A DNA stretch of 64,000 bases from a bacterium (GCA_043822925.1 JBDRBF010000041.1:4957-68956), one strand, 5' to 3'; shown: positions 374 to 28,068, counted from the stretch's first letter. The notes: generated by a model from the letters alone, not told the origin. A program made the numbers and translations.

Positions 374-394
374 TCGACTGAAACTTATTCCAGC

Positions 395-412: not shown

Positions 413-416
413 ATTA

Positions 417-3404: not shown

Positions 3405-5078
3405 TTATTCTTCTTTTTTCGTAAGTTTTAAAGTGAATTGCACACCTTTTTCAGCAGCTGAATGCACTTCTTCTTCTTTGTCATCACGAACTAAAAGCCG
3501 AGAGTCATCAAAACGTTTTTTAAATTCAAAGAAAGCTTTAAAATGCTCCGCACCTTCACGTGATTTCAAAAAACCATCAACTGTAACTTCAGGCTTTCCT
3601 GCGATTTTTTCATCAATTGCAATTTCGCTAATATCAATATCAAACCGCTTTTTATCCATGATGCTGGTTAATTCAAAAAGAATATCAAGACAACGAACAC
3701 GCTCCTGGGCAAAAGGCGCACAAACTTCCTGTTTTTCTTTTAAAATTTTTTCAGCTTGAGCTATAACAGCAGCAAGCGACTTAGTTTTTGGTCTCTGAGC
3801 GCGAGGAATATTGTCTATGATCCGGCCAATTTCATTGTTTTCAATTTTGCTAACATATGCTGACAACTTACTTAATTGCAAGTAGCCCCGTACACCAATA
3901 AACGAAAGCAATATAAGCGCAAAAGAAAATCCAGCAATTAACTGTTTTTTAATTAACGGACGACGATCAAGAACAAACATTTTACGACGAAGATCAAATT
4001 CTACTTGTTCAGGTGATGGAATCGCCGTACCAAGAGCAATGGCATAATTACTTAAATTTGGGATTTGGCCAGAAATCTTATTCTGAATTAGCTTATTCAT
4101 AAAAAGCTTTAATGGATCAAATATTTCACAATGTACTTGAAGTATATCACTCGCAAATTGAGCCAAATCACTCACTTCTGCCGTTTTACCTGCAAATAAA
4201 ACTTTACTAACGCCTTTATAGTAATTTAATTTTAAACTAAATGAATTAAGCGTAAACTGAATATCATTAAAAAACTGCATCATGTATTTTTGAACAACGC
4301 GATCATATTCAAGGTCCCCCGTAGACTTAATCCCAATAGCTTTTAATTTTTTTAATACTTCTTCTTCTGTTACACTCGTATCTTTACTAATATGGTCGAC
4401 GATTGTTAATAAACCCTTTTGGATAGAACGCGTCAAACGCAATTTACCTTCATAAATAAACGAAATTTGTGTTACATTTACACCGACGTCAATCAAAGCG
4501 CTCCCTTGTTCAGTATTTTGATACTCAGGAATTTGCTGGTATAAACTATAAAGGGCAAATAAATCAAGCGTAATACTCTGTGGCTCTATGCCTGCTTGAC
4601 TAGTAATATCCAAAATACTTTGAATATCCTGATTTCTTACAGCAGCGACAAAAATATGCGAACTTTTCTGTTCTGGTAACTTTTCTGTCACTATAAAGTC
4701 AATACTTGCTTCATCGACAGAAAACGGCAACATAGACTCTATCTCATAATCAAGAACCATTCGTATACGCTCAGTATCAATAAACGGCACCACAAGTTCT
4801 TTAAAAACAGCGGCTGTCGGAATAGAAATACGAACCTGATCATAACGTTTAACCTGAGGCATTATTTTTTTTATTGCATCAATTGTACGCTGAGACTGTG
4901 TTTTTTCATCACCAGGCTCAAGAACTTCTTTAAACAATTTTTCTACTACTGTACAAGACCTTTTTGCATGCACAAGCGCTGCATACACCGTATCATCTTG
5001 CGTATCTATCGCCAAAATTCTCTGTGCATAAATACGTCGATTACCTATTCTTTCTGGAAGAAATAATTCTTTTATCAT
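3405..5078 (-). CDS. GspL-like (PilM-PilN fusion type) assembly-platform protein
   Basis: The N-terminal half has actin-like/PilM signatures (RILAIDTQDD..., ALIDVGVNVTQISFIYEGKLRLTRSIQKG). A central TM helix follows (LIAGFSFALILLSFIGV), then a periplasmic C-domain. The start overlaps the upstream secretin stop (ATGA at 5075-5078). Confidence 0.6.
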   Translation of the reverse strand: MIKELFLPERIGNRRIYAQRILAIDTQDDTVYAALVHAKRSCTVVEKLFKEVLEPGDEKTQSQRTIDAIKKIMPQVKRYDQVRISIPTAAVFKELVVPFIDTERIRMVLDYEIESMLPFSVDEASIDFIVTEKLPEQKSSHIFVAAVRNQDIQSILDITSQAGIEPQSITLDLFALYSLYQQIPEYQNTEQGSALIDVGVNVTQISFIYEGKLRLTRSIQKGLLTIVDHISKDTSVTEEEVLKKLKAIGIKSTGDLEYDRVVQKYMMQFFNDIQFTLNSFSLKLNYYKGVSKVLFAGKTAEVSDLAQFASDILQVHCEIFDPLKLFMNKLIQNKISGQIPNLSNYAIALGTAIPSPEQVEFDLRRKMFVLDRRPLIKKQLIAGFSFALILLSFIGVRGYLQLSKLSAYVSKIENNEIGRIIDNIPRAQRPKTKSLAAVIAQAEKILKEKQEVCAPFAQERVRCLDILFELTSIMDKKRFDIDISEIAIDEKIAGKPEVTVDGFLKSREGAEHFKAFFEFKKRFDDSRLLVRDDKEEEVHSAAEKGVQFTLKLTKKEE

Positions 5079-7912
5079 GGAACTGAACCCTCAGTTTTCA
5101 CAGGGATTTCTGAAAAAAACTTTTTGAGACTTTCTCTTTTCTCCTGCTGCACAGGAACTTCTTGTTGCACATTTTCTAGTTTGGGTTGGGAAAAAAATTT
5201 TTTAAGCTGCTCACGCTTTGGACTTTCAGAAATAAACTGTTTCAGCTTTTCTTTCTTATCTATCTGCCCATCTTGTACACTTTGAACACTAGTTATAGAA
5301 GCCTGTGAAAGAACATTTTTTAATTGTTCTCTACGCTCATCTAAATCAGTATCAACAACTGTTTGACCTGTATTATATATAGGCTCTTGCATAATAGGCT
5401 TTTGAGATAATTGCTTAAGTAATGGCGTTGTCCCCATTATTTCTTGTTTTTCAGGTGTTACTGGCGCCATAGGCTCTATTCTTGCTACTTTTTGCGCATC
5501 TGCCCCCGCAACAGAAACGGGACCAACAGGCATGTCTGCTTGAGTAAGTATTTTCTTATCTTGCACTGGCACCGTAATTCTTTCAGCTACTTCTTCTTTA
5601 AGCTCTTCGCGCTTTGTCTGAGATCTATAATACGGATCATTTTGCATGTCTACCGTTGTTGGCTGATAACGCGCATTGGCAAAATCAACAACTTTATGTG
5701 AATAATTTTCTGACTCAGCATCAAAGAACCAATTAAAAATTGGATCCCGAGTCTTTCTCGTCTCTACACCATTTTCAATACCCTCTGTAACTTGATGCAT
5801 TTTCATTTTGGTATACAATTCCATACCAGGCAACTGACGAGGCTTAATAATTGTTGGAGCCATAAAAACAAAAACATACGTTTTTGATATATCTCGTCTT
5901 TGTTTTTTAAATAACCACCCCAAAATTGGTATATCAGCCAAAATTGGCGTTTTTGTATTTTCATCCGATACTTTTGTTTTAACAAAACCACCAAGAACCA
6001 AAACCTGCCCATCAGCAACTGTCACCTGCGTTGTAAGATTTTTTGTCGTTTTATTCCCAGTATCTTCACGAATAAAATCATCAATGGTAAGCACTATGTC
6101 CATTTTAATAATTCCATCAAGATTTATTTGAGGGGTCAATTTAATGTTTGTATCTGCCTTAAGCGTAGTAAAACCTTTAGCTGTTGTGCTTGGATCAAGT
6201 TCCTGTGAAACACGAACCTCTTTACCAAATGATATTGTAGCTTCTTTCTTATTAGCTACCGTTAAAAAAGGCTTTGATAAAATAGTCGCATTCGTTTGAG
6301 TCTTAAGTGCCTGAAAAACTCCCCAAATATTAGCATTTTTTCCAAACGTTAATGTTGCAGCACCATGAGAAGCCGCAACTTGCCCAAGCATACGACCAAG
6401 TAAATTAAGCGGATTTGTATTATCCGGAGCAAAAGACGGACTTCCTGATATAGCTGCTGACTGAAAATTAATAGAATTTCCCAACTGTCCCTCTTTTTTA
6501 TTACGCAGAGCTCCACCGATATCTTTTATATTCGATGAATCAACCGACACAATAAGTGTTTCTATAGCAACTTGAGGCTGAGGTTTGTCCAAATCTCTAA
6601 TTGTTTTTTTTAGAAGCTTCCAGTCTTGTTTATCTGTCGAAGAGACAACAAGACGATTACCACTTTTATCTACCTTAAATTTCATCTGCTTAAAATATTT
6701 TACCCCACCGCGAATAGACCCATACTTTGCGGCCTCTGCACCCCCCTCACTCTCCGGAGCCGCAGTAACCTCCTGCAATATTTGAGCAATTTGAGTTGCA
6801 TCGGCATACTGTAGTTCAAAAATATGTAATGGCGATTCTACAGCTTTAAGTTCTGTATCAATATGATTAACAATAAAATCTTCAATTTTTTTAATAGGCC
6901 CAGCTGTCCCAAGCATTACTAAAGAATTTGTACGCGGTATCGTGAAAATTTTAATACCTGCCGGGAAATACTCTAACCCGCCCTCTGCTGCGCCACCAAA
7001 TAAACGAGCAAGCGCTCCACCTTCAGACTTTTTGGTCATCAAACCCTCAAGAAGCTCTTTCACGTCAGTTGCATTTGCATTTTTAAGCCTAAGAACAACA
7101 ACACTCTCTGACTGCCCAGACCGATCAAGCTCTTGTACTAATTTAACCGCAGATTTTATGTTAAGAGACTTATCTGTAATAATAAACCCGTTCACATCCG
7201 TTTGAGTTATTAACTGGTGCTTATCACTCAAAAGACTCTCAAGTAAAGTTGTGATTGACTCAGTCGGTAAATTTTGTAAGAAAAACACATAACGAATAGT
7301 TATGTCACTATCGGGAAGCGTTTCAGCCGGAACGTTAATATATGATGGTAAGGGTTCTGTAAGTTTTTTATCTTTTGGAATAACTTTATAAACATCGCCA
7401 ACTTGAACAATACTAAACCCAGCCATTTCTAGCACGGTTAAGAAAATTTTATACGCACCATCAAGCGTTAGGGGGTCGCGTATTGATAAAGAAATTTTTG
7501 CGCCTTCTAAAGCTTTATCTGGAATCAAATTAAATTTTTTCAGTTCTGCCATGTAGTTTACAAAATTTGATAATTCTGTATTTTCAAAATTCAAATAAAT
7601 ATCGCGCTCTTCTTTTACTTCTTGCTGACCAGTTTTTTTTATTTGATCTGAATCAGATTTTATTCGAGCATTAGATTTTAGACTTGCAGGCTGAAGAACT
7701 TCTAACTGCTTAGCCAAAACTTGATCTGACTTTTCTATTTTAGTTTGAGCCAATTGCGGCTGCACCTGAGCTGCAGAATCAACCTGAACTTGAGCTACAG
7801 TTATAGGCTGCTGCTGTATACTCTGAGCTGCTGGCATGGCACTTAACAATGGAAATAATCCACCAACAAAACATCCCACAAACAAGGCTCTCGTCTCGAA
7901 CAAAGCCCTCAT
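5075..7912 (-). CDS. Secretin, GspD/PilQ family (paralog 1, 945 aa) with long low-complexity N- and C-terminal extensions
   Basis: Signal peptide ...LLSAMPAAQS. N0-like IYLNFENTELSNFVNYMAELKKFNLIP. Secretin core VLVLGGFVKTK...TPILADIPILGWLFKKQRR...VFVFMAPTIIKP. Confidence 0.88.
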   Translation of the reverse strand: MRALFETRALFVGCFVGGLFPLLSAMPAAQSIQQQPITVAQVQVDSAAQVQPQLAQTKIEKSDQVLAKQLEVLQPASLKSNARIKSDSDQIKKTGQQEVKEERDIYLNFENTELSNFVNYMAELKKFNLIPDKALEGAKISLSIRDPLTLDGAYKIFLTVLEMAGFSIVQVGDVYKVIPKDKKLTEPLPSYINVPAETLPDSDITIRYVFFLQNLPTESITTLLESLLSDKHQLITQTDVNGFIITDKSLNIKSAVKLVQELDRSGQSESVVVLRLKNANATDVKELLEGLMTKKSEGGALARLFGGAAEGGLEYFPAGIKIFTIPRTNSLVMLGTAGPIKKIEDFIVNHIDTELKAVESPLHIFELQYADATQIAQILQEVTAAPESEGGAEAAKYGSIRGGVKYFKQMKFKVDKSGNRLVVSSTDKQDWKLLKKTIRDLDKPQPQVAIETLIVSVDSSNIKDIGGALRNKKEGQLGNSINFQSAAISGSPSFAPDNTNPLNLLGRMLGQVAASHGAATLTFGKNANIWGVFQALKTQTNATILSKPFLTVANKKEATISFGKEVRVSQELDPSTTAKGFTTLKADTNIKLTPQINLDGIIKMDIVLTIDDFIREDTGNKTTKNLTTQVTVADGQVLVLGGFVKTKVSDENTKTPILADIPILGWLFKKQRRDISKTYVFVFMAPTIIKPRQLPGMELYTKMKMHQVTEGIENGVETRKTRDPIFNWFFDAESENYSHKVVDFANARYQPTTVDMQNDPYYRSQTKREELKEEVAERITVPVQDKKILTQADMPVGPVSVAGADAQKVARIEPMAPVTPEKQEIMGTTPLLKQLSQKPIMQEPIYNTGQTVVDTDLDERREQLKNVLSQASITSVQSVQDGQIDKKEKLKQFISESPKREQLKKFFSQPKLENVQQEVPVQQEKRESLKKFFSEIPVKTEGSVP

Positions 7913-14661: not shown

Positions 14662-15981
14662 ATGATTTATAGAAAAAAAATTCAGGCACTTTTACTTACA
14701 GGATGTTTACTCAGCCTTTCAAGTCAATTACTTGCGAGTCATAATACCAGTAAATATTCACTCTTTCTGGAGCGTCCAGACAATTACTCATACAGAAAAA
14801 AGCCATATCTACATGCTTCGCTATTTTATACATCAGCATCGACGGCGTTTCATCGCTATGGTGGCAACGCAGGTTTATATGAACTTTCAGGAAAATACGA
14901 TTTACAAAACATTTTTGACAGCCTAAAAACCGCTCACGCAACAGATGTAGCACTTAAGCCACAATTAGATCTCTGGGAGAGACAACTTGCTGGCTATGCA
15001 AATAAAACCGAATTTACAGCAGAAGGCAAATGCAAAGCAAGAGGCTTTGCACTTCAATACGATTGCGATCTTAAATGGAACAATCTTGTGGTTGGAGCAT
15101 CTATTCCATTTATATCAATAAATACAACCAGTCGCCTTAATCCATCAAATAAATCTTTGTCTGCAAGCGACCAACTAAATCTCAGTAAGATACGAAGAGA
15201 AATTCATGACACACTTGATCTTCGCGAAAATAACTGGGACAAAGGCGGGATTGGTGACGTAGACGTTTATCTCCGCTGGAATTATTTTTTAGATCATAAG
15301 CTTTTAATGCGCAGTATTAATCTCAATTTCCAATTTGGTTGCCTAGCCCCTACCGGCATCAGCCAAGACACCTCATACTTTTCATCTGTTCCTGTCATGG
15401 GCAATGGACATTGCGGACTTTATCTAGACTTTGTTCCCGAATTTGAACTTAAACAAAATTTAAAAGTCGGCTTCATGGTCGGTAACATTTATCAATTCAA
15501 AAACACAAAAATAATGCGCTTGCCTACGTATAAAGAACCTGCAATTTTTAGCCCTATTGTTGGAGATGTTAGTATTGAGCCTGGCTACACACTTAAACTA
15601 GCTCCCTATGTGATTCTTGAAAATCTTACAAACGGTGTTCATTTTCAAGCCCGTTATTCTTATTTGCGCCACAGCACTGATTCATGGAAAGATGCTCGCT
15701 CGACCGACGAAAAAACAAGCACCCCAAGCTATTTAAATATGAAGCCAGACATTGCAAATAACATAACTCAGGAAAATATAAACGATAATATAGCAAGTAA
15801 GAAAAATTTAACAAAATGGCGCGCACACTACATCACGCTGCAATTTTTATATAACTCAAAAGATGCATTACATAATCTTGTTTTTGATCCCAACGTTTAT
15901 ATTTCCTATGATCTTCCAATTGCTGGTCGCGGTATAAGTAAAACACATCAGATTACACTCGGTGCTGAATTACACTTTTAA
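14662..15981 (+). CDS. Putative outer-membrane beta-barrel protein
   Basis: Signal peptide (LLTGCLLSLSSQLLA|S). Alternating-hydrophobicity strands throughout. The C-terminus is ...ITLGAELHF with a terminal aromatic residue, typical of BAM substrates. Confidence 0.5.
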   Translation: MIYRKKIQALLLTGCLLSLSSQLLASHNTSKYSLFLERPDNYSYRKKPYLHASLFYTSASTAFHRYGGNAGLYELSGKYDLQNIFDSLKTAHATDVALKPQLDLWERQLAGYANKTEFTAEGKCKARGFALQYDCDLKWNNLVVGASIPFISINTTSRLNPSNKSLSASDQLNLSKIRREIHDTLDLRENNWDKGGIGDVDVYLRWNYFLDHKLLMRSINLNFQFGCLAPTGISQDTSYFSSVPVMGNGHCGLYLDFVPEFELKQNLKVGFMVGNIYQFKNTKIMRLPTYKEPAIFSPIVGDVSIEPGYTLKLAPYVILENLTNGVHFQARYSYLRHSTDSWKDARSTDEKTSTPSYLNMKPDIANNITQENINDNIASKKNLTKWRAHYITLQFLYNSKDALHNLVFDPNVYISYDLPIAGRGISKTHQITLGAELHF

Positions 15982-17049: not shown

Positions 17050-17083
17050 CACGTTACTCTAAAAACAAATTCTAACCTTAAAA

Positions 17084-17112
17084 GGCTCGTAAAATATTAC
17101 GGGCCTTTTTTT
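17084..17112 (+). terminator. Intrinsic terminator of mreB
   Basis: ggctcgtaa-aatat-ttacgggcc forms a 9-bp stem with one G-U pair, followed by ttttttta. Confidence 0.7.
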
Positions 17113-17235
17113 ATACAAAAAAAAGAACTCCTATATTCGCAAAGCTTTACAAGCAGTAATATTATAAGTAATACTAGAAAATATCTTGCGCATAAATTTA
17201 AAACAAAAGTCTTGAAGTGGACTTAAATAAGCGCT

Positions 17236-17262
17236 CGTGAATAACGTGAATAACGTGAATAA
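17236..17262 (+). repeat. Three perfect tandem copies of cgtgaataa directly upstream of the ribosome-binding site of the first A-type gene
   Basis: cgtgaataa x3 is read directly, followed by aAGGAG and an ATG at 17278. Confidence 0.9.
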
Positions 17263-17277
17263 AAGGAGAATAGTACA

Positions 17278-18969
17278 ATGACCAGAAATCTTTGTCATCA
17301 TTTTTACAAAATTCAAATCTTTTTATTCTTATCTCTTTTCTCTTCACCAGTAATCGCAAACATCTCTTTTCATAGCAAAAGTTCTGCCTGGATTGTAAGC
17401 GAGGGAGAAATTATTGTATCAGATACAACTCATCTTTATGGATGGAAAGATGCATCGGTAATAAAAGATAATGCTTATACCGGGAACAATTGGACTGGAT
17501 ACCCATCATCCCCCTGGAACTATGCAAATTTACCAAGTTTAGACGTCATAAACAATAGTAATGCCATAAATTACTATGCACCAACTATTAGAAATAACTC
17601 CCGCTTATTAAGCCAGACAAGCAACGCACTTATAACAGATATTGGCAACTTGCGAACAACAAGTAATGCCCTCCTATATGGACTAAGAATTAATAGTAAT
17701 GCTATCGTAACAAACGCTATTAATATCAAAACAAACAGTAACAGCATCGTAAAAAACAACATAGATATAAAATCGAACAGCAATGCCATTATTTCTCTGG
17801 CTGCATCTGGCATGGGAGTTCTCGCAACCCAAAATAGCAACGCCATAAATTACTACGCACCAATAATTAGAAACGATTCAAGATTATTAAAACAAACAAG
17901 TGATGCGTTTATATATAATCTTAACACAAGCGGCGCCGAGGGAATTAAAAACAATAGCAATGCAATAATAGTATTAGACAAGCTCACTAAACAAAACAGC
18001 AATGCTATAGTAAGTGGTGGCGGAGGAAGTGAAATAAACTATGAAGGCAACCTCACTATTGCTGGCCCAACCTATACATTGGCCCATAACCGATTTGCCA
18101 ACCCAGTTTCTTCAAATATTTACTTCACTGGAAATACAACTTTTAATGGCAATAATAATTATATACAATTCAGCGATAGTCCTAGCTCTATTCACGTATC
18201 TCCTGGTGTAACTGTTATTTTCTCAAATACCATATTTAAAGATCTTACTGATACAGTATTTAACTTAAGTGCCGGAGCTCAAGTAATATTTGATACAGGA
18301 ACCGTTATTGAAATAATGCGACCAACAACATTAAATCAAAACTGGATTTTCACAGGAGATTCTCTTATTTATGGTTACAATAATACACTCGATCTAGCAA
18401 ATTCTAACATTCAAATATCAAGCAATAGCACATTAACAATACACAGCCTAAATATAACTGGCCTCAAAAATAATAACTTATCGGCTACCAGCTCAAACGA
18501 CCGAATTACGCTACAAAATGCTGCACTTATACTCTCAAACAACTTTAGCTATAGCACCGGCGCATTAAGATTCGAAAACGATGTTTTAATTACCGGTACA
18601 AATACATTTACCTACGCAACAGATCAAATATCAACTATAGCATCGCAATCACACGTAATTCTGGATACCGGAGTAACGTTTGAATATAACGCCCCTATCG
18701 CAAATAGAGACCTACTGACCATGACAGATCAAACATCACGCTTAATCTTAAACGGCTGCACCCTATCTTCAACGACAACAGGCCTGCGTTTAACCAAAGG
18801 AACATTAGTTATTGAACACAAAAACAACCTATACAACACAGGCGCAACATCTTTATCAGAAGCTATTAACTTAGGTAACGGCACTCCAAATGGCGAACTG
18901 ACGATTGAAATAAAACCAGGAGCATCAATAGATCTTAAATCGGGAATCTTAAATTATGAAAATGTATAA
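17278..18969 (+). CDS. Exported repeat protein, type A1 (NSNAI heptad/14-mer repeat head plus a divergent copy of the shared C-terminal module)
   Basis: AAGGAG RBS and signal peptide ...FSSPVIA|N. More than 10 NSNAI/TSNAL repeats. The C-terminal part is alignable with the other three paralogs (FENDVLITGTNTFTY..., TGLRLTKGTLVIE). Confidence 0.85.
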   Translation: MTRNLCHHFYKIQIFLFLSLFSSPVIANISFHSKSSAWIVSEGEIIVSDTTHLYGWKDASVIKDNAYTGNNWTGYPSSPWNYANLPSLDVINNSNAINYYAPTIRNNSRLLSQTSNALITDIGNLRTTSNALLYGLRINSNAIVTNAINIKTNSNSIVKNNIDIKSNSNAIISLAASGMGVLATQNSNAINYYAPIIRNDSRLLKQTSDAFIYNLNTSGAEGIKNNSNAIIVLDKLTKQNSNAIVSGGGGSEINYEGNLTIAGPTYTLAHNRFANPVSSNIYFTGNTTFNGNNNYIQFSDSPSSIHVSPGVTVIFSNTIFKDLTDTVFNLSAGAQVIFDTGTVIEIMRPTTLNQNWIFTGDSLIYGYNNTLDLANSNIQISSNSTLTIHSLNITGLKNNNLSATSSNDRITLQNAALILSNNFSYSTGALRFENDVLITGTNTFTYATDQISTIASQSHVILDTGVTFEYNAPIANRDLLTMTDQTSRLILNGCTLSSTTTGLRLTKGTLVIEHKNNLYNTGATSLSEAINLGNGTPNGELTIEIKPGASIDLKSGILNYENV

Positions 18970-19067
18970 AAAATAAAAAAAACCTGGCTCCTGGATCCCT
19001 ACTACACCCAGGTGGCTTGGAAGGCCAGACGAGTCCTGGATAACAAGTAAAAAAGAAAGAGAGAGTT

Positions 19068-21068
19068 ATGAAGAAAAATATGAGACTATTTTTATACCTG
19101 TTTTTTGCACTATTCTTTATGCAGCAAAAAACTCATGCCTCGTTCTTTAATCCATCCCCATACACTCTAGATTACGGAACAACAGCGTCAACCGCTCGCT
19201 GGAATGCAAATGGCACATATCTAGCCGTCGGAGGAACTAACTTTCCAACCGATCTCACTATATACGGTTTTGATGGCACATACGTAACACCAAAAGCAAC
19301 AGAATCTTTTGGCAACGGAGCCTTTGCTGTCGATTGGTCACCAAACGGACAATATCTGGCCATTGGTGGAGACTACTCGACCAATGCTCTTATTATTTAT
19401 AAATGGGACGGAGTAGATACAACACTTAGCACATCAAAATATCACGGCTCATATGTAACTGCTGTCGCATGGAACCCCGCTGGAAACGCTCTTGCCGTTG
19501 GTGGCAACTGGAACAACAACAATCTTGCACTTTATAATTGGGATGGATATAACACGCTCTCGCTCACCACATCAAAATATTATGGCACACAGGTTAACGG
19601 CCTCGCTTGGAATCCAGCAGGAACTAAGCTAGCTGTTGCCGGTCAAAATCGTTACTGTGGACTAAGCCTCTACGACTGGAATGGCTCAACCCTTACGCTC
19701 ACCACATCAAAATATCACGGAATTTCCGCAAATGCTCTTGCCTGGACAAGTACCGGAACGTATCTCGCTGTTGGTGGAAACTATAATACAAACAATGTTA
19801 TTATCTATACTTTAAGCGGACCCTCATCACTCACACTCACAACATCGATTTCTTTTGGAACAAATGCTAACACGCTTTCTTGGAGTTATGATGACCGCTA
19901 TTTAACCGTCGGTGGAGACAATAGCTCTGCTGATTTGACAACCTACGAATGGAACGGCTCAACACTCACACCAATACCAAATTCACAAGCAAGTTACGGC
20001 AACGGAGTCTATGGTGCCAGCTGGAGCCCCTACTCAGATTATCTGGCTGTCGCTGGAAATAACAGCTCAAACGACTTCACACTCTATACAAGCAATGGTT
20101 ATTTAAATGGCACAAAAAATAACGTAACCCTCTCAAATCATTACTTATTTACAGATGGCGGCTATGCAAACGGTCTTGTTAATTTTACTAATGGTTGCAC
20201 CGTACTTCCTGGCAAAAAACTTAAACTTGCACTACTTACACCATTTTCCGGTGGTCTAGATTTACGAGACACAGCAACCTTACAACTTGAAGACGATTTA
20301 TATTTAGACGCAGACGTCACCCTCACAACTGGCGGCTATATTTATGGGCAAGGACATGCAATCTATTTAGAAAATGATTTAACAATTCCAGATAACACCA
20401 TCATGCACATCAGTAATGATACTATAATTGATGGAAATGGGCATAAACTTAACTTAGGACACGAAAGTCAATTATTTATAGATTGGGGAGTAACGCTCAC
20501 ACTTAGAAATATGACATTCAAAAACACCGTTAACAATCAAGATACTCCACCAGTAAGACTTAATGGAAAAACAAGCAAACTTGCTTTGGATAACATTCAT
20601 CTTGAATTATCCAGTGACTTCTCATTTACCTACGGCCAACTCTTTATTCATAACGATGTTTTAGTTACCGGCACTTCAAAGTTCAATTATCTCTCATCAC
20701 ATCAAAGCTACATAGATACATGCAGTACTCTTTACTTTGACCTTGGCACTACCTTTTCTTTTGCCCCATATTTATCGACTAATAAAGATCTTATTTACAT
20801 GAAAGATGCATCAGCGACACTATATCTTAATGGTACCACGCTTGCAATAACACACACTGGATTACGTCTAACCAGAGGCCGTTTATTAATAGATAATACA
20901 GTAACGTTCACCAGTCAATATTATGAAGGAAGTCACAAACAAGCACCAAGCAACGGGCTTATTTTTGGCAACGCTATATTTAGCGACTCTATATACGATC
21001 TAGATGTGCACCTTTTGGGTGGAGCAAATATTGGCCAATACACGTTAGTAAAAGTTGACGAAATATAA
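19068..21068 (+). CDS. Exported repeat protein, type B1 (7-bladed WD40-like beta-propeller plus shared C-terminal module)
   Basis: Signal peptide ...QQKTHA|S. Seven ~45-aa repeats of the form AWNPAGxxLAVGG...Y.W.G..LTLTTSKYHG. The C-module includes IIDGNGHKLNLG and LFIHNDVLVTGTSKFNY...NKDLIYMKD...LAITHTGLRLTRG. Confidence 0.85.
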   Translation: MKKNMRLFLYLFFALFFMQQKTHASFFNPSPYTLDYGTTASTARWNANGTYLAVGGTNFPTDLTIYGFDGTYVTPKATESFGNGAFAVDWSPNGQYLAIGGDYSTNALIIYKWDGVDTTLSTSKYHGSYVTAVAWNPAGNALAVGGNWNNNNLALYNWDGYNTLSLTTSKYYGTQVNGLAWNPAGTKLAVAGQNRYCGLSLYDWNGSTLTLTTSKYHGISANALAWTSTGTYLAVGGNYNTNNVIIYTLSGPSSLTLTTSISFGTNANTLSWSYDDRYLTVGGDNSSADLTTYEWNGSTLTPIPNSQASYGNGVYGASWSPYSDYLAVAGNNSSNDFTLYTSNGYLNGTKNNVTLSNHYLFTDGGYANGLVNFTNGCTVLPGKKLKLALLTPFSGGLDLRDTATLQLEDDLYLDADVTLTTGGYIYGQGHAIYLENDLTIPDNTIMHISNDTIIDGNGHKLNLGHESQLFIDWGVTLTLRNMTFKNTVNNQDTPPVRLNGKTSKLALDNIHLELSSDFSFTYGQLFIHNDVLVTGTSKFNYLSSHQSYIDTCSTLYFDLGTTFSFAPYLSTNKDLIYMKDASATLYLNGTTLAITHTGLRLTRGRLLIDNTVTFTSQYYEGSHKQAPSNGLIFGNAIFSDSIYDLDVHLLGGANIGQYTLVKVDEI

Positions 21069-21147
21069 AAAATCTATGCACAAAGTTAAAAATAAAACCT
21101 TAAAGTTAACTTTAACCGGCACCTGAAAATAAAGGGAGAAGAGTAAA

Positions 21148-23058
21148 ATGGCCAGAAATATTAATAGCCGTTTTTATAGCACTCGAATTTTATTATTTCT
21201 ATTTCTTTTTTTCTCAACAATAAATGCAAAAATAACTTTTCAGAACAAAAATTCAGATTGGGTTATATGCGAAAACAATACGCTTTATTTAAACACAGCA
21301 AACACCTATGGATGGCAAGCGTCATCAATTACAAAAAACAATGGGTACACAGGCGCAGCTAATACATGGACCGGATACCCAGCAGCACCATGGACCGCCA
21401 CAAACATACCAAGCTTAGATGTCATCAATAATAGTAACGCTATCAATTACAATACCCCCATTATCAGAACAAATAGCAACGCCATAAACTATTACGCCCC
21501 AATAATACGTAACAACTCATATCTTCTAAATCAAACAAGTAACGCTCTGGTCAAAAACACTCTTAATATCAGAACAAATAGTAACGCTCTGGTTAAAAAC
21601 ACTCTTGATATTAGAACCAACAGTAACGCAATACTCTACGGCGACAGAACAAATAGCAACGCCATAAACTATTACACCCCAATAATACGTAACAACTCAT
21701 ATCTTCTGAACCAAACAAGTAACGCTCTGGTCAAAAACACTATCGATACCAGAACAAATAGTAACGCTCTGGTTAAAAACACTCTTGATATCAGAACAAA
21801 TAGTAACGCTCTGGTTAAAAACACTCTTGATATTAGAACCAACAGTAACGCTCTGACGTACAATACCGATAACATCAAAAATAATAGTAATACTATCGTA
21901 GCGACTAATAGACTCACCAAACAAAATAGCAGCGCCATTATTAAAAATACGGCTGATATTTCTGCCATACCGAGCAATACAGTCGTCGTCGGGACAAGTA
22001 ACGCGATGGTTTATTATGCGCCTATGATCAGAAACAACTCATATCTTCTGAACCAAACAAGTAACGCTCTGGTCAAAAACACTCTTAATATCAGAACCAA
22101 CAGTAACGCAATACTCTACGGCGACAAAACAAATAGCAACGCCATAAACTATTACGCACCAATAATACGCAATAACTCATATCTCTTAAAACAAACGAGT
22201 AACTCCATAGCCAACCCACTTATAAAAACAAGCAACCATCTAAGTACAGGAGCCCTCATCCTAACCAGCGATTTACTGCTCACGGCAAACTGCACCGTAG
22301 ATCCCACCTCTTGCAACATCTATGGCAATGGCCACACGATTTACTTAGGCGGAGATTTAGTCCTTCCCGACGATTATATAATGCTAATTGGCAGCGACAC
22401 CATTATCGATGGTAATGGACATTCATTAATCTTAGGGAAAAGAAGTGAAATCGCTCCTGAATATACCCTCACTCTTACACTCAGGAATCTCACGCTCAAA
22501 AATATACTTAACCCACTACCTGACGCGACTCCTATTTATTTCGACGCTTCCAATTGCAACCTCGCGCTTGATAACGTCACTATGGCGCTAACCGATGACT
22601 TCCCTTTTGACAATTACAATAATGGCGCAAAACTATTCATTCACAATGACGTCATTTTCACCGGAACATCTAAGTTTATCTACCAATCCGATAAACCAGC
22701 ATACATAGATGGCAAAAGTACTTTCTATTTTGATAACAACACTACATTTTCTTTTGCTCCTCTCTCGACCAATAAAGATCTTATTTACATGAAAGATAAA
22801 ACATCAACGCTCTATCTTAATAACGCCACACTTGCAATAACACACACCGGGCTGAGACTAACCAAAGGCAACCTGTTACTGGAAAACAATGTAACTTTTA
22901 CCAGCCAACGCTACGAAGGATCCCATAAACAAGCGCTCTCAAATTCATTTGTTTTTGGTAACGCAACATTAGGTGAAAATTACGACTTAAACGTACAAAT
23001 ATTAAACAACGCGAAACTTAATGTAAAAGGCATGATTAAGAATAATAACATTAACTAG
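21148..23058 (+). CDS. Exported repeat protein, type A2 (expanded 14-residue repeat head plus shared C-terminal module)
   Basis: AGGGAG RBS and signal peptide ...FSTINA|K. Arrays of TNSNALVKNTLDIR repeats. The C-module is nearly identical in patches to B1 and B2 (IIDGNGHSLILG, LFIHNDVIFTGTSKFIY, NKDLIYMKD, LAITHTGLRLTKG). Confidence 0.85.
   Translation: MARNINSRFYSTRILLFLFLFFSTINAKITFQNKNSDWVICENNTLYLNTANTYGWQASSITKNNGYTGAANTWTGYPAAPWTATNIPSLDVINNSNAINYNTPIIRTNSNAINYYAPIIRNNSYLLNQTSNALVKNTLNIRTNSNALVKNTLDIRTNSNAILYGDRTNSNAINYYTPIIRNNSYLLNQTSNALVKNTIDTRTNSNALVKNTLDIRTNSNALVKNTLDIRTNSNALTYNTDNIKNNSNTIVATNRLTKQNSSAIIKNTADISAIPSNTVVVGTSNAMVYYAPMIRNNSYLLNQTSNALVKNTLNIRTNSNAILYGDKTNSNAINYYAPIIRNNSYLLKQTSNSIANPLIKTSNHLSTGALILTSDLLLTANCTVDPTSCNIYGNGHTIYLGGDLVLPDDYIMLIGSDTIIDGNGHSLILGKRSEIAPEYTLTLTLRNLTLKNILNPLPDATPIYFDASNCNLALDNVTMALTDDFPFDNYNNGAKLFIHNDVIFTGTSKFIYQSDKPAYIDGKSTFYFDNNTTFSFAPLSTNKDLIYMKDKTSTLYLNNATLAITHTGLRLTKGNLLLENNVTFTSQRYEGSHKQALSNSFVFGNATLGENYDLNVQILNNAKLNVKGMIKNNNIN
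21409..22228 (+). repeat. In-frame coding repeat array (7/14-codon periodicity with runs of near-identical 42-nt units)
   Basis: Near-identical units such as agaacaaatagtaacgctctggttaaaaacactcttgatatc recur in tandem at ~21535-21640 and ~21715-21850. A larger block (NSNAINYYAPIIRNNSYLLNQTSNALVKNTLNIRTNSNAILYGD) recurs at ~21478 and ~22010. Confidence 0.85.
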
Positions 23059-23062
23059 AAAA

Positions 23063-23080
23063 CCGGGGTTAAAACCCCGG
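23063..23080 (+). repeat. GGGGTT..AACCCC palindromic hairpin just after the A2 stop codon
   Basis: ccgggg-ttaaaa-ccccgg. It has the same core as the hairpins at 395-412 and 23208-23225. Confidence 0.6.
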
Positions 23081-23181
23081 CCTAACAAGAGCTTCGTGCT
23101 ACCGCACGAGAAAGCTTCGATGAACATGAAAACCGATAAATGTAAAATTCCTAAACCCTTACAATTAAAGGCGAGATCATC

Positions 23182-25263
23182 ATGCAGAGCCTGAAATTTG
23201 CAATAGCCTGGGGTTTTAACCCCAGACTGAAAAAAAAACTATTACTTCTGTTCCTGTTTTTTACTCTATTTTTTATAACACAAAAAATAGAAGCTTCTTT
23301 CTTTGATCCTTCTCCATTCACTCAAGATTATGGAGATGGCATTTTGCACGCCTACGCGACCCAATGGAACCCAGCCGGAACACACCTGGCCGTTGGTGGC
23401 ATAAATTATCCAAACGATGTAACGATATACGAATGGGATGGCCAGTATCTCGAGACAACAAATAGTATCAATTTTGGCGCAGGCGCTTTTGCACTGAGCT
23501 GGTCACCAAACGGGCAATATTTAGCCGTTGGCGGCGACCATAATTACAATTCACTTATTATTTATAAATGGGACGGCGTATCGCTCACGCTTACGACATC
23601 AAAATATCACGGCACACAAGTTAACGCTGTATCCTGGAACCCGGCTGGCGACACGCTCGCAGTCGGCGGCGTGTGGGGCAATAACCCGCTTGTTATGTAT
23701 AGTTGGGATGGCTTAAATTCGCTCACGCTCACGACGTCAAAATATCACGGCACGCAAGTTAATACGCTTGCCTGGCACCCAGACGGAACTAAACTGGCCG
23801 TGGGGGGAATTTATGGAACCCGCGACGTCATACTCTATGGCTGGAGCAACCCAACACTGACGCCTATAACATCTCTTGACCATGGGTCTGAAACCAACGC
23901 ACTTGACTGGAGCTCAACGGGTTCTTTTTTGGCTGTCGGCGGCGCCAACACGCCAAACGACATTGGGATCTATATGCTCAGCGGCTCTACGTTAATACAA
24001 AAAACAACTGCAACTTTCGGAACAAAAGCAAAAACACTCGCTTTTAGTTTTGACGACACGATACTTGCTGTCGGCGGCATTAATCCCGGCTCTGATTTGT
24101 TAGTATATCAAACATCTATCGTTTCTGCTTACCCAGGCTTCGCGTACCTCAACCCAGTGAGCAGTTCACAAACAAGTTATGGCAACGGTGTTTATAGTGT
24201 TGCCTGGACCCCATACTCAGATTATCTGGCTGTCGCTGGCGATAATGGCTCAAGCGATTTAACCATCTACAAAAATCACAACTACTTAAATGGCACTAAA
24301 AATAATATTACCCTCACAGACAAGTACGTATTTAGTGGTGATGGCGTCGGCTTTGTAATCGGTTCTGTTACATTCAAAAACGGCTGCGACATGGGAAACA
24401 CCTGGATAACAATGGCCCTTACCGAACCATTTTCTGGAGAACTTGCAAATGCTAGTGAGCTCATACTAGAAAACGATTTATATCTCAATTCAAACACTAC
24501 CATAGCCTCAGTAGAACTCGGGTTTTACGGTAACGGCCACACAATTCATTTGGGCGGAGATTTAATCATCCCGGATGCTTCAACATTCTACATCGATAAC
24601 GACACAGCCATTGACGGGAATGGACACTCGTTAATTTTGGGCAACCAGAGTAACCTTAATGTAGGCAACACGGTCACGCTCACACTCAGAAATCTAACAC
24701 TCAAAAACACGGTTAACACACAAGCTCTTCCCCCTATCGTTGCGTCTTCAAGTACCGCCAAAATCGCCCTCGATAACGTCAAGCTCGCGCTTACCGATGA
24801 TTTCTATTTCCCCACCGGCCAGCTCTTTATCCACAATGACGTTATGTTTACCGGAACATCGAAGTTTATCTACAAATCACCATATCAAAGCTATATTACC
24901 AAAAATGCAACGCTCTACTTCGGCCCACACACAATATTTAAGTACAATCCAAACTCAACAAATAATAATTTAATTGCTATGCAAGATGCTTCGTCAAGCC
25001 TGTATCTAGACGGCTGCACGCTACAACTTACACACACAGGGCTGCGCTTATCAAAAGGACAAATATACCTGGAAAATAGTGTCACATTCACCAGCCCATA
25101 TTCAGAAATAAACCCATCTGATGCATCAACAAGTTATCAGTCAGCATCTACTGGCTTAATTTTAGGCAATTCTATATTGGGACCAGATTATAACTTAAAT
25201 ATAGATGTTTTGGGTGGAGCGAATATTAATCAGCATTGTTTTGTAACATTTGATGAGGCATAG
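23182..25263 (+). CDS. Exported repeat protein, type B2 (7-bladed WD40-like beta-propeller plus shared C-terminal module)
   Basis: Signal peptide ...ITQKIEA|S and seven propeller repeats. The C-module includes AIDGNGHSLILG, LFIHNDVMFTGTSKFIY and LQLTHTGLRLSKG. The ATG at 23182 has an aaggcgag RBS. The 15-aa N-terminal extension relative to B1 contains a palindromic element, so the start is somewhat uncertain. Confidence 0.8.
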   Translation: MQSLKFAIAWGFNPRLKKKLLLLFLFFTLFFITQKIEASFFDPSPFTQDYGDGILHAYATQWNPAGTHLAVGGINYPNDVTIYEWDGQYLETTNSINFGAGAFALSWSPNGQYLAVGGDHNYNSLIIYKWDGVSLTLTTSKYHGTQVNAVSWNPAGDTLAVGGVWGNNPLVMYSWDGLNSLTLTTSKYHGTQVNTLAWHPDGTKLAVGGIYGTRDVILYGWSNPTLTPITSLDHGSETNALDWSSTGSFLAVGGANTPNDIGIYMLSGSTLIQKTTATFGTKAKTLAFSFDDTILAVGGINPGSDLLVYQTSIVSAYPGFAYLNPVSSSQTSYGNGVYSVAWTPYSDYLAVAGDNGSSDLTIYKNHNYLNGTKNNITLTDKYVFSGDGVGFVIGSVTFKNGCDMGNTWITMALTEPFSGELANASELILENDLYLNSNTTIASVELGFYGNGHTIHLGGDLIIPDASTFYIDNDTAIDGNGHSLILGNQSNLNVGNTVTLTLRNLTLKNTVNTQALPPIVASSSTAKIALDNVKLALTDDFYFPTGQLFIHNDVMFTGTSKFIYKSPYQSYITKNATLYFGPHTIFKYNPNSTNNNLIAMQDASSSLYLDGCTLQLTHTGLRLSKGQIYLENSVTFTSPYSEINPSDASTSYQSASTGLILGNSILGPDYNLNIDVLGGANINQHCFVTFDEA
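23208..23225 (+). repeat. GGGGTT..AACCCC palindromic hairpin inside the 5' end of the B2 ORF
   Basis: ctgggg-ttttaa-ccccag, read directly. Confidence 0.6.
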
Positions 25264-25310
25264 GGAAAATAGAACAAATGACAAATCAAGAACAGAACAA
25301 CATTCGATAA

Positions 25311-26849
25311 ATCGGGGAGGAGAAGCTCGCGCAAGCGGGCTTCGTCCTCCCACACCACCGTACGTACTCATCGTATACGGCGGTTTCTTCTAACTTTTTT
25401 TTCACAAAGATTCGAAAATCTCACAAATACTTATAAACCCGTTCATTCTCCACCATTCAACACCCATAGCTTTATGTGCTTGTGGGATAAGAGCTAATCG
25501 CCACCATCCATTTCCAGATGTTGCCGCCATCCAGGCTCTCGCCAGTCTAATGCCGCGTTGTATCAACATTGTTGCAATTGTCTTTGCTCTCTTTAATTGT
25601 TTTAGTCGATAACAGCGAAGTTTATGCCGAATCCATCCATCAAGTTCTTTCAATGTGCTTTCGGATTCTGCATACCTAAAGTATCACATCCATCCAGGCA
25701 AAATAGTGTTGATTTCTCGAATCACCTCTTCCAAACTCTTTCCACGATTTCTCTTTGTTGCCGCTCGCATTTTATCTTTGAATCGCTCGATACTTTGTTG
25801 CGCGATTCTTAAGATGCCTCTACGATCAATACGATAGCCAAGAAACTTCCGAGCCCCTACCGGGAGCCACCGTGCTTTTCTTCTGGTTGATTTTCAGCCT
25901 GAGCTTGGTTTCTAGAAATTCTCTAATTGATTGCATTACTCGTTCTCCTGCTCTTTCTGATTGCACATAGATATTACAATCATCTGCGTAGCGACAAAAT
26001 TTGTGTCCTCTTCTTTCTAGCTCCTTATTACCCGAGACATGAGAATATCGTGATTTACCCGATCAAAGAATTTCGCTAGATCAATATCAACGACCCATAG
26101 TCGATCCTCACGCACATATTCTTGTGCCTGTTTTATCGCTTGATGGGCACTTCTTCCAGGCCTAAATCCGTAGCTTGAATTTGAAAAAATATTGTTCGAA
26201 TATTGGAGAGAGCGCTTGAAGAAGCGCTTGTTGAACGAGTCTATCAATGACCGTCGGAATACCCAAGTCTCTTTGACCACCTCCTGGTTTTGGTATGCTT
26301 ACACGTTTTACCGGTTGCACTTTATACCTATCGCCCAAAAGAGAGTCTACTAATTCTTGTTCATTCTCAACGTACCATTGCTTCAGTGTATTAACGGTCA
26401 TTCCATCAACGCCAGCGGCGCCTTTGTTTGCCATAACACGCTGCAGAGCCTGCCTCAAGTTATCCCTTTGGCAGACTACCTCCATTTTTTTTCCGCTACT
26501 ACGGCTTCTGCTAACTTCTCTGCAACATCTCCATATTGTTGCCAATATAGCCGCTTAGTTTTACTCAGCTATTTGCAAAAATCTCCCGGGGTAATGCACA
26601 CTTCCTTCACATCGGCTCCACTGGATTTACTACCACGATATACGAGTGACTATATGGCTTCTTCGTCTATAGCCGAATTACCTATCGCGTAGGCCTTATA
26701 TCCAGTTTCTGTTCGTTGGATCCATGTTTTCGTCGTCAGCTTCCTTCAGATTTTACCTCACGGTGAACACCATTGCCTAGACGTAGAGTTCCGGTCACTC
26801 GGTCTGTGGGAGACTTTCACTCCTGGAAAGTGCGCCATGCCCGGCACAC
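25311..26849 (-). mobile_element. Degenerate group II intron (class C-like); boundaries approximate
   Basis: The minus strand starts GTGTGCCGGG at 26849. It encodes RT/maturase fragments. A domain V-like hairpin lies at ~25354-25385 (ACCGCCGTATAC...GTACGTACGGTGGT, with CGC in the triad position). A GC-rich domain VI-like hairpin lies at ~25314-25351. G+C is visibly higher than in the flanks. Confidence 0.75.
25402..26545 (-). pseudogene. Group II intron reverse transcriptase/maturase, disrupted
   Basis: Fragments: ...QRVMANKGAAGVDGMTV...IPKPGGGQRDLGIPTVIDRLVQQALLQ; then a frameshift; ...YGFRPGRSAHQA...VVDIDLAKFFDRVNHDILMSRV; a stop plus loss of the segment that normally carries the PQGG/SPLL block; ELERRGHKFCRYADDCNIYV; an in-frame TGA at 25684-25686; and the maturase tail LDGWIRHKLRCYRLKQ.... 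Confidence 0.85.
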
Positions 26850-26882
26850 TAATAAAAGGGCCCGTAATTTCTTACGGGCCCC
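26850..26882 (-). terminator. Intrinsic terminator of the 26955-27704 gene, abutting the intron 5' end
   Basis: The minus strand reads GGGGCCCGTAA-gaaa-TTACGGGCCC, followed by TTTTATTA, then the intron GTGTG. Confidence 0.7.
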
Positions 26883-26954
26883 AAATTAAAGACAAAAACT
26901 AGGAAACCAGGATAATAAAAAAAATATATACTTCACGTATTAACGTGTATAAAT

Positions 26955-27704
26955 TTATGCGCCAATATATGCAGGAAACACAACTTTAAAAAGCCCGCAA
27001 GCTTTTCCAAATGCGTCATACATAGCAGCAGTCATGGCAGTAACTAAAGCTCCAGGGGCTTTATCTATAACAAAATTAACATCAAAATTTTTTACGACAC
27101 GCTCTTGCAGCCTCGTTAATTTTTCTTTTAAAACAGGCGAACAACATTTAAAATTCACACAATCTTTCAATGTAGTTTTTAAACCAATAAGAACATTTTT
27201 AGTAATATTACCTGATAAATATGCCAAATATGGCACCAAAATTTTTGCCAGATTTTTTGTTAAAACAAAAGCATTACGTACATTAAATAAACCAAGAGAT
27301 AGATAAGTAAAAAGAACCACCATTAAAAATGCTTTAATAGCAAAAATAAATTGCGCCGTATTTATGCTTATTTTGTCAGTCTCTCGTATTTTATTATACG
27401 TTTCTTTAATAACTTCACGCGTAAGCTGACAAACGTCTTTAATCTCACTAAATTTATCAGAAACTTTATTTTGAATACTTTTTTCCAAATCAAACACAAA
27501 AGAGACTATTTTCTCAAATGTGCTATGCAAGCGCAGAGCACTCTCTGGTGTGATATTTTTTTCAAGATTAAATTCTCGAGTAGTTTCTTGATTATTAAGC
27601 ATAACGTTATTATTTTGACAATTATTAATCGATAAACAGATGATATTAAAAAGTAAAAACATACTTAAAAAAGGTGCATGTGTGCGCAAATAAGATAATG
27701 ACAT
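26955..27704 (-). CDS. Hypothetical membrane/exported protein
   Basis: 249-aa ORF with an N-terminal hydrophobic segment (FLSMFLLFNIICLSI), an internal TM (FIFAIKAFLMVVLFTYLSLGLF) and its own terminator. No recognisable family motif. Confidence 0.5.
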   Translation of the reverse strand: MSLSYLRTHAPFLSMFLLFNIICLSINNCQNNNVMLNNQETTREFNLEKNITPESALRLHSTFEKIVSFVFDLEKSIQNKVSDKFSEIKDVCQLTREVIKETYNKIRETDKISINTAQFIFAIKAFLMVVLFTYLSLGLFNVRNAFVLTKNLAKILVPYLAYLSGNITKNVLIGLKTTLKDCVNFKCCSPVLKEKLTRLQERVVKNFDVNFVIDKAPGALVTAMTAAMYDAFGKACGLFKVVFPAYIGA

Positions 27705-27828
27705 AATATAACCCCCTATTATTACTTAAAACCCATTTATAGGACAACTTTAAGTATAACAAATTGGCCAAATATGTCAAATAGGCAATATAGTATGATT
27801 TTAGGGTCCCTAGGTGGAAAAATAAAAG

Positions 27829-28068
27829 CTATATTTTTTCGGGTATTTTTAATAATTCGATTTTGCGATAAAGCGTACTCCGGCTAATACCAAGCATCTT
27901 AGATGCTACAACGTAATTATAATCAGTTTCCTGAAGCACAAGTTCAATAAGATATTTTTCTATTTCACCTATAATCAGTGGGTGTATATTGCCCTGGCCG
28001 TCTTTACCAATGCCAATGACCATCTGTTTTACTTCTTTTTTTAACAAATCATAGAGCGATACTGACAT
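27829..28068 (-). CDS. Fis-family small DNA-binding protein
   Basis: 79 aa ending in the Fis-type HTH NYVVASKMLGISRSTLYRKIELLKI. Confidence 0.7.
   Translation of the reverse strand: MSVSLYDLLKKEVKQMVIGIGKDGQGNIHPLIIGEIEKYLIELVLQETDYNYVVASKMLGISRSTLYRKIELLKIPEKI

Follow-up and report, generated by a model that had tools for sequence, protein, structure and literature searches.

Four exported proteins encoded in tandem in a Dependentiae genome share a predicted parallel beta-helix module of a large, apparently phylum-specific family

What kind of proteins are encoded by four consecutive genes that alternate between two types of N-terminal head, and what might they do for the bacterium that carries them? 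This question is raised by a 64,000-nucleotide stretch of bacterial DNA (GCA_043822925.1, JBDRBF010000041.1:4957-68956; hereafter the window, with positions counted from its first letter), in which an original prediction, made from the sequence alone, had singled out an array of exported paralogs, here called A1, B1, A2 and B2. The four same-strand open reading frames (ORFs) were found exactly where they had been placed, and a purine-rich motif resembling a ribosome-binding site precedes the ATG of every one of them (4/4 array genes), as had also been proposed. Their products are identical to the NCBI proteins MFH1831930-33, which are encoded on a 69,954-bp contig of a metagenome-assembled genome (MAG) and labelled only 'hypothetical' or 'WD40 repeat domain-containing'. 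Scans of the array for promoter and terminator consensus sequences gave matches no commoner than in shuffled sequences. Our analysis indicates that all four proteins end in a module predicted to fold as a parallel beta-helix, that this module defines a family of its own, and that the array appears to have been built by duplication and exchange of its parts. We hold this structural, family and evolutionary statement with high confidence; a function in host interaction is a tentative proposal that falls a little short of an even chance; and the explanation that combines structure, family, evolution and host interaction is the best one available, which on balance we consider probable.

The C-terminal module is common to the four proteins and measures about 320-330 amino acids (aa), slightly more than the 300 or so first estimated. 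In BLASTP comparisons with composition-based statistics, the B1 module is 49% identical to that of A2 over 337 aa (E 1e-78), the A2 and B2 modules share 51% (E 1e-73), and the A1 module is 35-37% identical to those of B1 and B2 (E 1e-22 to 1e-23); from end to end, B1 and B2 share 53% identity. The A2 module lacks the first 45 or so residues, the N-cap, seen in B1 and B2. Two details of the original prediction stand in part only: the terminal motif LGGANI.Q, thought to be conserved in all copies, is found in B1 and B2 but not in A1 or A2, and the A1 copy, described as much more diverged, is indeed distant from its neighbours but belongs to a separate subfamily that lies nearest to foreign proteins. 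An alignment of 22 module sequences contains invariant columns, and the polar motifs IDG-x-G-H/N, TLTLRN, F-I-H-N-D-V and TGLRLTKG are kept throughout the family. Using this alignment, AlphaFold2 modelled the B1 module with a mean predicted local distance difference test (pLDDT) score of 92.3 and a predicted template modelling score of 0.91, as an all-beta solenoid of approximately 11-12 rungs with three strands each, in which only the segment at module residues ~277-303 has low confidence. The full-length model of A1 shows the same fold at aa ~280-563 (pLDDT 85-98), and in both models the C-termini form cap strands of the beta-helix. The two models agree with the beta-solenoid suggested earlier, and they place the module in the pectate-lyase-like class of parallel, presumably right-handed beta-helices.

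Structural searches with Foldseek against PDB and BFVD returned weak matches only (E of at least 0.01, template modelling (TM) scores 0.2-0.35), the top ones all being beta-helices: the passengers of TibA and Ag43, pectate, alginate, fucoidan and chondroitin lyases, members of GH110 and GH28, and tailspikes. Searches of PDB sequences with phmmer and with profiles of the module gave nothing meaningful, and no domain model in the curated libraries that we searched (Pfam and NCBIfam) covers it. The sole profile match is PF20585 (Pectate_lyase_5), which has a gathering score of 24.3: the complete proteins B1 and B2 reach 24.0 and 20.0 bits, short of this score, the isolated B1 module exceeds it (25.6 bits), 12 of the 22 family members match at E<=0.1, and A1 and A2 do not match. 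It is important to note that this match takes in only module residues 91-152, some 60-70 of about 320 positions or roughly one fifth of the length, and that PF20585 is itself described as a 'putative' adhesive domain, so the claim that no well-characterised family accounts for the module has held. The module is a distinct family inside a known fold class.

The size of this family became apparent in an exhaustive search with the module profile, which recovered 2,686 cluster representatives in public data at E<=1e-3 (1,423 at E<=1e-30) with lengths from 338 to 4,562 aa (the longest being P0036), against only 18 homologues in a word-indexed search. Nearly all named representatives come from Dependentiae, annotated as 'hypothetical' [Ca. 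Dependentiae] or 'WD40 / beta-propeller lactonase family' [Ca. Babeliales]. The 23 loci examined (one genome per species) are all MAGs labelled Babeliales, TM6, 'bacterium' or 'uncultured Pseudomonadota', and the last of these have flanking genes in common with the Babeliales loci. The family is thus very large and apparently specific to Dependentiae (TM6/Babelota). Hydrophobic, signal-peptide-like N-termini occur in 122 of 131 representatives (93%) and a lipobox in 0/131, and most of the fetched loci hold same-strand tandem arrays of 2-6 family genes. A giant-virus or phage origin was dropped, since 2.9 million viral contigs contained no relatives of the module.

Mapping the module hidden Markov model onto family proteins (M, module; W, WD40 propeller) revealed which partners the module keeps in other genomes. 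In the dominant form, of about 700 aa, a signal peptide is followed by module positions 1-295, a WD40 propeller of ~330 aa and the last ~45 module residues, so that the propeller sits nested within a beta-helix loop, one equivalent to the segment modelled with low confidence in B1. Further forms are the module alone (~340 aa), M-M-M (~1,200 aa), M-M-M-M (~1,650 aa), W-M-M-M and giant fusions, some proteins carry 3-9 tandem modules, and one member has a propeller of the BNR/sortilin type. The repeat head of the A proteins stands ahead of M-W-tail proteins in two loci (L010 8917-12036 and L015 2387-5542) and behind a distant module in another protein (P0030). The idea of a modular family with swappable heads therefore survives in the sense that the partners vary, but the heads are not equally foreign, the WD40 propeller being the habitual and normally nested partner. 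The proposal that the C-terminal module is a delivery or anchoring device finds no support; the module is the core scaffold and often the entire protein. Two individual loci illustrate how architectures may change. A stand-alone module (L004 870-2102, the same as P0002) retains a single WD40-blade remnant exactly at the propeller-holding loop, pointing to propeller loss as the origin of some module-only proteins. Elsewhere, a 2,951-aa ORF (L009 11998-20850) contains four consecutive module-propeller-tail units, apparently a tandem gene array fused into one giant protein.

The heads of B1 and B2 are WD40 propellers, as had been read from their sequences: PF00400 matches them with 55.0 and 63.6 bits (cutoff 27), many other propeller families also match, and seven W-x-P-x-G-x-x-L-A-V-G-G blades are readable in each protein. 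The order found here, with the propeller first and the module contiguous, is rare among the top family matches. Because the B1 and B2 propellers are 41% identical to nested propellers in other genomes, the two proteins are best described, on sequence comparison, as a rearranged order of habitual partners and not as a new fusion or acquisition. A shifted gene boundary in an array of M-W-tail genes was considered for B1 and B2 and rejected, as no tail remnant lies between propeller and module.

The heads of A1 and A2 are homologous to each other (36-41% identity, E 6e-53 in BLASTP). After the signal peptide they carry a segment of ~70 aa (…TGWS-x-SSI-x-K…), conserved in other genomes too, followed by repeats that start with (T/N/Q)NSNA(I/L) and have unit lengths of 14, 11 and 7 residues; this is the organisation originally described, apart from a segment somewhat longer than the ~60 aa first given and the 11-residue unit, the repeats having been given as 7/14. 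Pfam and NCBIfam searches of these heads produced only noise (in Pfam even at E<=10), and a Fourier analysis of hydrophobic periodicity was uninformative. One explanation that concerns A1 and A2 only is that the repeats form a trimeric coiled-coil stalk with asparagine at heptad position d (N@d), so that the proteins would be homotrimeric fibres bearing three beta-helix modules. The heptads conform to [ILV]xxN[TS]xx, which is the asparagine-at-d pattern seen in stalks of trimeric autotransporters. A related pattern, [ILVM]xxN[TSN]xx, is present at 26 places in the A2 head, compared with 6.8+/-2.4 in shuffled sequences, at spacings of 7 and 14; related heads in the family alternate spacings of 11 and 14. 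The best PDB sequence match of the A2 head is a coiled-coil fragment of SadA (2WPQ; TNsNalvkNTlDIrTN aligned with NTADITTNTNSINQNTTDIATN), and N@d layers are documented in such stalks, as far as the account of Hartmann 2009 given in PMC4786415 goes. However, the SadA match is not significant (E 0.064), a tandem repeat of any kind is bound to give in-phase spacing, Pro, Gly and Tyr-Tyr occur within the repeats, and the isolated heads match none of YadA_stalk, Hep_Hag and YadA_anchor in Pfam at E<=10. The A1 monomer model leaves the head below pLDDT 50 and without helices, and because AlphaFold2 did not resolve it we keep the coiled coil as a sub-hypothesis only, one that we regard as doubtful. 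Whatever their fold, the repeats of A2 include 42-bp and 180-bp DNA tandem repeats at 21465-21890 (Tandem Repeats Finder, TRF), and the length of this region is still evolving, because the 180-bp units are 93-97% identical, reflecting a recent internal duplication alongside the 42-bp units.

How the array came about can be read from the relations among its parts. The modules of B1, A2 and B2 are nearest to one another (51-55%), a level about equal to that with a foreign stand-alone module (P0001, 54%). The A1 module is nearest to foreign proteins (P0040, 42%; L024, ~40%) and not to its neighbours, and the A1 and A2 heads are each other's best matches; heads and modules therefore have incongruent histories. 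Recombination mapping among the four genes by sliding identity also revealed a mosaic in the 3' third of the B1 module: in the last ~130 module columns B1 is 69-79% identical to A2 against 50-60% to B2, and the informative sites shift from 8/15/18 to 32/19/9 along the module (Fisher p=0.0008). This tract looks like an old recombination or gene-conversion tract between adjacent genes. The incongruence and the mosaic bear out the proposed diversification by duplication and domain shuffling, and the array arose as genes were duplicated, heads and modules were exchanged, and gene conversion acted on part of the sequence.

A contig of the same species from another sample in the Logan collection (L028) provides a view of variation at the same locus, as it is 99.82% identical over 12.3 kb and keeps the mreB-A1-B1 order. 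The sole indel in these 12.3 kb lies in the 9-bp tandem repeat upstream of A1, which has three copies of CGTGAATAA in the window and four in the other sample, and the four substitutions in A1 are all nonsynonymous (4/4). The single-nucleotide polymorphisms and the repeat change fit a variable, contingency-like locus, the numbers being too small for inference, and the repeat may modulate expression or act as a phase-variation element.

The export signals were judged by a heuristic that combined a 10-residue Kyte-Doolittle window, the charge of the n-region, an A-x-A-like site and a lipobox check. All four proteins have a basic n-region, an h-region with a Kyte-Doolittle mean of 2.45-3.05 and an A-x-A-like site, the candidate cleavage sites being VIA|N, THA|S, INA|K and IEA|S, in line with the signal peptides noted at the outset (4/4). 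The same scan found no later transmembrane segment or lipobox in them, and Pfam and NCBIfam searches at E<=1 gave no match to an autotransporter barrel (PF03797), a type IX secretion C-terminal domain or another sorting domain, so the absence of a lipobox, a barrel and a sorting domain, too, had been correctly noted. The array proteins are accordingly predicted by the heuristic to follow Sec-dependent export with cleavage by signal peptidase I, and because they combine a Sec-type signal peptide with no membrane anchor, lipobox or barrel, they should be released into the periplasm as soluble, folded proteins. A further step had been suggested by the secretins nearby, for which the array proteins were proposed as plausible cargo: two GspD-like genes (417-2843 and 5075-7912, minus strand) flank a PilM-like gene, with a GspC-like gene beside them, and the block lies 7-17 kb upstream of the array. 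This suggestion is not borne out. The block from GspD to MreB is conserved housekeeping synteny in relatives without the array, so the proximity of the secretins is uninformative on cargo, and no neighbour is conserved beside the arrays of 23 other loci. Substrates of type II secretion have no known linear sequence signal, and secretion of the array proteins by this route is possible on general grounds only. All TM6 genomes have been reported to carry two gspD copies and no pilQ (PMC4776705).

The source organism is a Babeliales/Dependentiae (TM6) MAG, the MreB of the window sharing 82-86% identity with proteins that bear the names Candidatus Babeliales or Candidatus Dependentiae. We compared the locus with two syntenic Babeliales relatives (CP064957.1 and JAIEPG010000002.1), both of which share the order GspD, T2SS-C, MoxR, sigma54 regulator, ABC, MlaE, SecG, TIM, an unknown gene and MreB, and continue after MreB with a Fis-like HTH_8 gene 4 bp on, two unknown genes, RNase PH, PNPase, S15, RpoC and RpoB. 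The array is missing from both. Because the HTH_8 gene abuts mreB in these relatives but lies far downstream in the window, positions 17050-27830 represent a 10.8-kb insertion, which comprises the array, a group II intron and an orphan ORF; the accessory nature of the stretch and its two flanks, the mreB terminator and the intron, were thus correctly recognised (Table 1). The terminator-like hairpin was not flagged by a simple terminator scanner. The group II intron is a decayed copy: RF02001 (125.9 bits at 26596-26767) marks D1-D4, RF01998 scores 34.7 bits, RF00029 marks D5/D6 at 25311-25385 with 26.9 bits, below its gathering score of 40, and the reverse transcriptase/maturase is broken into four frameshifted ORF fragments (26162-26545, 26017-26280, 25826-25966 and 25402-25653). 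The D5/D6 match lies only ~50 nt from the B2 stop codon.

Table 1. Positions of the array genes, their parts and the elements around them in the window (nucleotide positions unless marked aa).
Feature	Position	Strand	Details
Terminator-like hairpin after mreB	17084-17112	+	GGCTCG...CGGGCC and T-run; read from sequence; left edge of insertion
9-bp tandem repeat, CGTGAATAA x3	17236-17262	+	TRF; directly upstream of the A1 Shine-Dalgarno (AAGGAG)
A1	17278-18969	+	563 aa; ORF call
A1 N-terminal parts	aa 1-245		signal peptide aa 1-27; conserved N-terminal segment aa ~28-93; NSNA 7/11/14-residue repeats aa 94-245
A1 module	aa ~280-563		beta-helix (predicted), different module subfamily
B1	19068-21068	+	666 aa; ORF call
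B1 N-terminal parts	aa 1-340		signal peptide aa 1-24; seven-bladed WD40 propeller aa 27-340 (nt 19146-20087)
B1 module	aa 341-666 (nt 20088-21065)		contiguous beta-helix (predicted)
Mosaic 3' third of B1 module	20673-21065	+	closer to A2 22666-23055 than to B2
A2	21148-23058	+	636 aa; ORF call
A2 N-terminal parts	aa 1-355		signal peptide aa 1-27; conserved N-terminal segment; NSNA repeats aa 96-355
A2 module	to aa 636		beta-helix (predicted), without N-cap
B2	23182-25263	+	693 aa; ORF call
B2 layout	aa 1-693		signal peptide aa 1-38; seven-bladed WD40 propeller aa 41-362; beta-helix module (predicted) aa 361-693
Decayed group II intron	25311-26770	-	D1-D4 RNA, broken reverse transcriptase/maturase, weak D5/D6
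Orphan ORF	26955-27704	-	249 aa, hydrophobic segments; no family match; absent from syntenic relatives
Fis-like HTH_8 gene	27829-28068	-	tblastn, 66% identity to HTH_8 protein of L026; right edge of insertion

Other proteins with signal peptides are encoded in the window outside the insertion. The plus-strand gene at 14662-15981 encodes a 439-aa protein with a signal peptide, no family match and an outer-membrane-barrel-like C-terminus (...AELHF); a protein with 43% identity is encoded directly upstream of mreB in related Babeliales genomes. Two adjacent plus-strand genes (50711-52030 and 52333-54081) encode signal-peptide paralogues of 439 and 582 aa that are 53% identical over ~400 aa; this pair lies in a region of high AT skew, has no Pfam match and is unrelated to the beta-helix module.

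With regard to function, Dependentiae (TM6/Babelota) are ubiquitous obligate parasites of protists, of which very few have been cultured. With regard to their attachment to the host and its manipulation, the focus so far has been on ankyrin and other generic repeat proteins. We propose that the array proteins act outside the cytoplasm of such an intracellular parasite, in an adhesin-like or effector-scaffold capacity, and that the beta-helix would be a rigid support on which a protein-binding propeller, or a fibre, is offered to host targets; the arrays of paralogues may supply diversity for host range or evasion, and the outer membrane may be crossed in vesicles or by the phylum's conserved type II secretion system. 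In C. destructans, a cultured member of the Dependentiae, 44% of the proteins have signal peptides and the putative effectors are Sec-exported (PMC6561590), and WD40 and other repeat domains in TM6 have been read as host-interaction domains (PMC4776705). By analogy, from the lifestyle of the phylum and the Sec export of its presumed effectors, the site of action of the array proteins is probably the cell surface or the host. We infer that the propeller is a putative protein-binding platform on a beta-helix whose nearest profile is of an adhesive type, and that the diversification of the paralogues would resemble that of surface families in other intracellular bacteria.

Several points weigh against this explanation. 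Localisation beyond the periplasm and function are inferred only, the signal peptides rest on a heuristic, the family lacks any functionally characterised member, and a beta-helix is just as characteristic of enzymes that degrade polysaccharides. No conserved partner gene was found beside the arrays in 23-24 loci. Substitutions between the two samples number 7 in the array against 6 in the flanks (p=0.06, not significant, with tiny numbers), and faster evolution of the array genes was set aside as suggestive only. Finally, the restriction to Dependentiae depends on submitter labels, and one homologue (P0085) lies on a 2.4-kb contig labelled Candidatus Lokiarchaeota, where the archaeal label is probably a binning error. 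This 793-aa protein is also the member that carries, in place of a WD40 propeller, an inserted one of the BNR/sortilin-Vps10 type.

A more far-reaching version joins all these elements. Dependentiae would recognise their hosts chiefly through this phylum-specific superfamily of thousands of secreted or surface proteins, which would have a new signature architecture, a propeller nested in a beta-helix and optionally mounted on a trimeric Asn-layer fibre, and would be exported by Sec and type II secretion; its arrays would be contingency loci that tune host range through head and module shuffling, stalk length and CGTGAATAA-dependent expression before A1. We regard this version as speculative and rather unlikely.

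The alternative of an enzymatic module, a carbohydrate-active lyase, hydrolase or epimerase of the pectate-lyase fold that degrades host or prey glycans, with the propeller or fibre as its targeting domain in the manner of phage tailspike depolymerases, draws on the fold matches, among which are lyases for pectate, alginate, fucoidan and chondroitin as well as GH110, GH28 and tailspike depolymerases, and on the polar motifs kept across the family; beta-helix pectate lyases are, moreover, classical type II secretion substrates. However, every one of those fold matches is weak, there are no PDB profile matches and no CAZy-type Pfam match, the only profile match being to an 'adhesive' beta-helix domain, the proteins with 3-9 tandem modules look structural and less catalytic, and the conserved motifs could be structural Asn/Thr ladders. 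We therefore consider an enzymatic role unlikely. That the proteins serve the envelope of the bacterium itself, as a TolB-like propeller scaffold or a surface layer, and are not directed at a host seems to us quite unlikely: they have a Sec signal peptide and no recognised outer-membrane export signal, their propellers show weak similarity to TolB (E 0.01-0.06), and the array adjoins genes for cell shape and envelope (mreB, mla, secG), but the TolB scores are 13-15 bits against cutoffs of 343-405, the adjacency stems from an insertion missing in close relatives, and many paralogues of 35-55% identity with variable architectures are atypical of housekeeping envelope proteins. A mere compositional similarity or annotation artefact, conceivable for sequences rich in Asn, Thr, Gly and Leu in an AT-rich window, is refuted and has practically no chance of being correct, given the BLASTP values under composition-based statistics (E 1e-22 to 1e-78), profile matches beyond E<1e-100 and down to 0 among thousands of homologues, the invariant columns over 22 sequences, and a fold confidently predicted by two independent models.

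The explanation that we favour, of exported beta-helix proteins with a possible role in host interaction, would have several consequences. The family gives concrete adhesin or effector candidates that are testable in cultured Dependentiae, a domain definition of the module would improve the annotation of thousands of 'hypothetical' or 'WD40 repeat' proteins, and a propeller nested in a beta-helix loop, moved to the N-terminus in this array, offers a case study of domain rearrangement. Nothing in our findings contradicts current concepts, the kind of protein being that of the exported beta-helix repeat proteins of host-associated bacteria. A full-text literature search found no account of the module, the propeller nesting or the NSNA head, a limited check in which no paper joined Dependentiae and beta-helix.

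Among known systems, PF20585, the 'putative pectate lyase-like adhesive domain', resembles the module in its parallel beta-helix and in the borderline match of B1, and differs in that only 60-70 or so of 320 residues are matched and in being a family that is itself functionally uncharacterised. Passengers of type V autotransporters (Ag43, TibA and the chlamydial Pmp proteins) are likewise exported beta-helices, with TibA (4q1q, E 0.011) and Ag43 as the best, if weak, structural matches, and autotransporter passengers and Pmps form paralogue families in host-associated bacteria; unlike them, the array proteins have no C-terminal beta-barrel and end in a beta-helix cap, and the resemblance amounts to a TM score of ~0.3 and an identity of ~10%. 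The stalks of trimeric autotransporters (SadA 2WPQ) and the YadA-type NSVAIG head repeats share with the A proteins the Asn-rich 7/11/14 repeats and the [ILV]xxN[TS]xx heptads, whereas in the A proteins the repeats are followed by a beta-helix instead of a membrane anchor, and no neck was matched. Pectate-lyase-fold enzymes and phage tailspike depolymerases have the general architecture of a right-handed parallel beta-helix in common with the module, as the weak Foldseek matches indicate, but the module has no significant sequence or profile similarity to them and no recognisable catalytic signature. The closest comparison in terms of organism is with the eukaryote-like repeat proteins of TM6 (ankyrin, WD40, LRR and F-box), which have been discussed as effectors in host interaction and which share with the array the phylum, the WD40 propellers, the signal peptides and the expansion into families. 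The papers on these repeat proteins record domain presence only (PMC4776705, PMC6561590); WD40 proteins were thus already known in TM6 (PMC4776705), and the beta-helix module, the nested propeller and the NSNA head are, as far as this limited literature check reaches, apparently described here for the first time.

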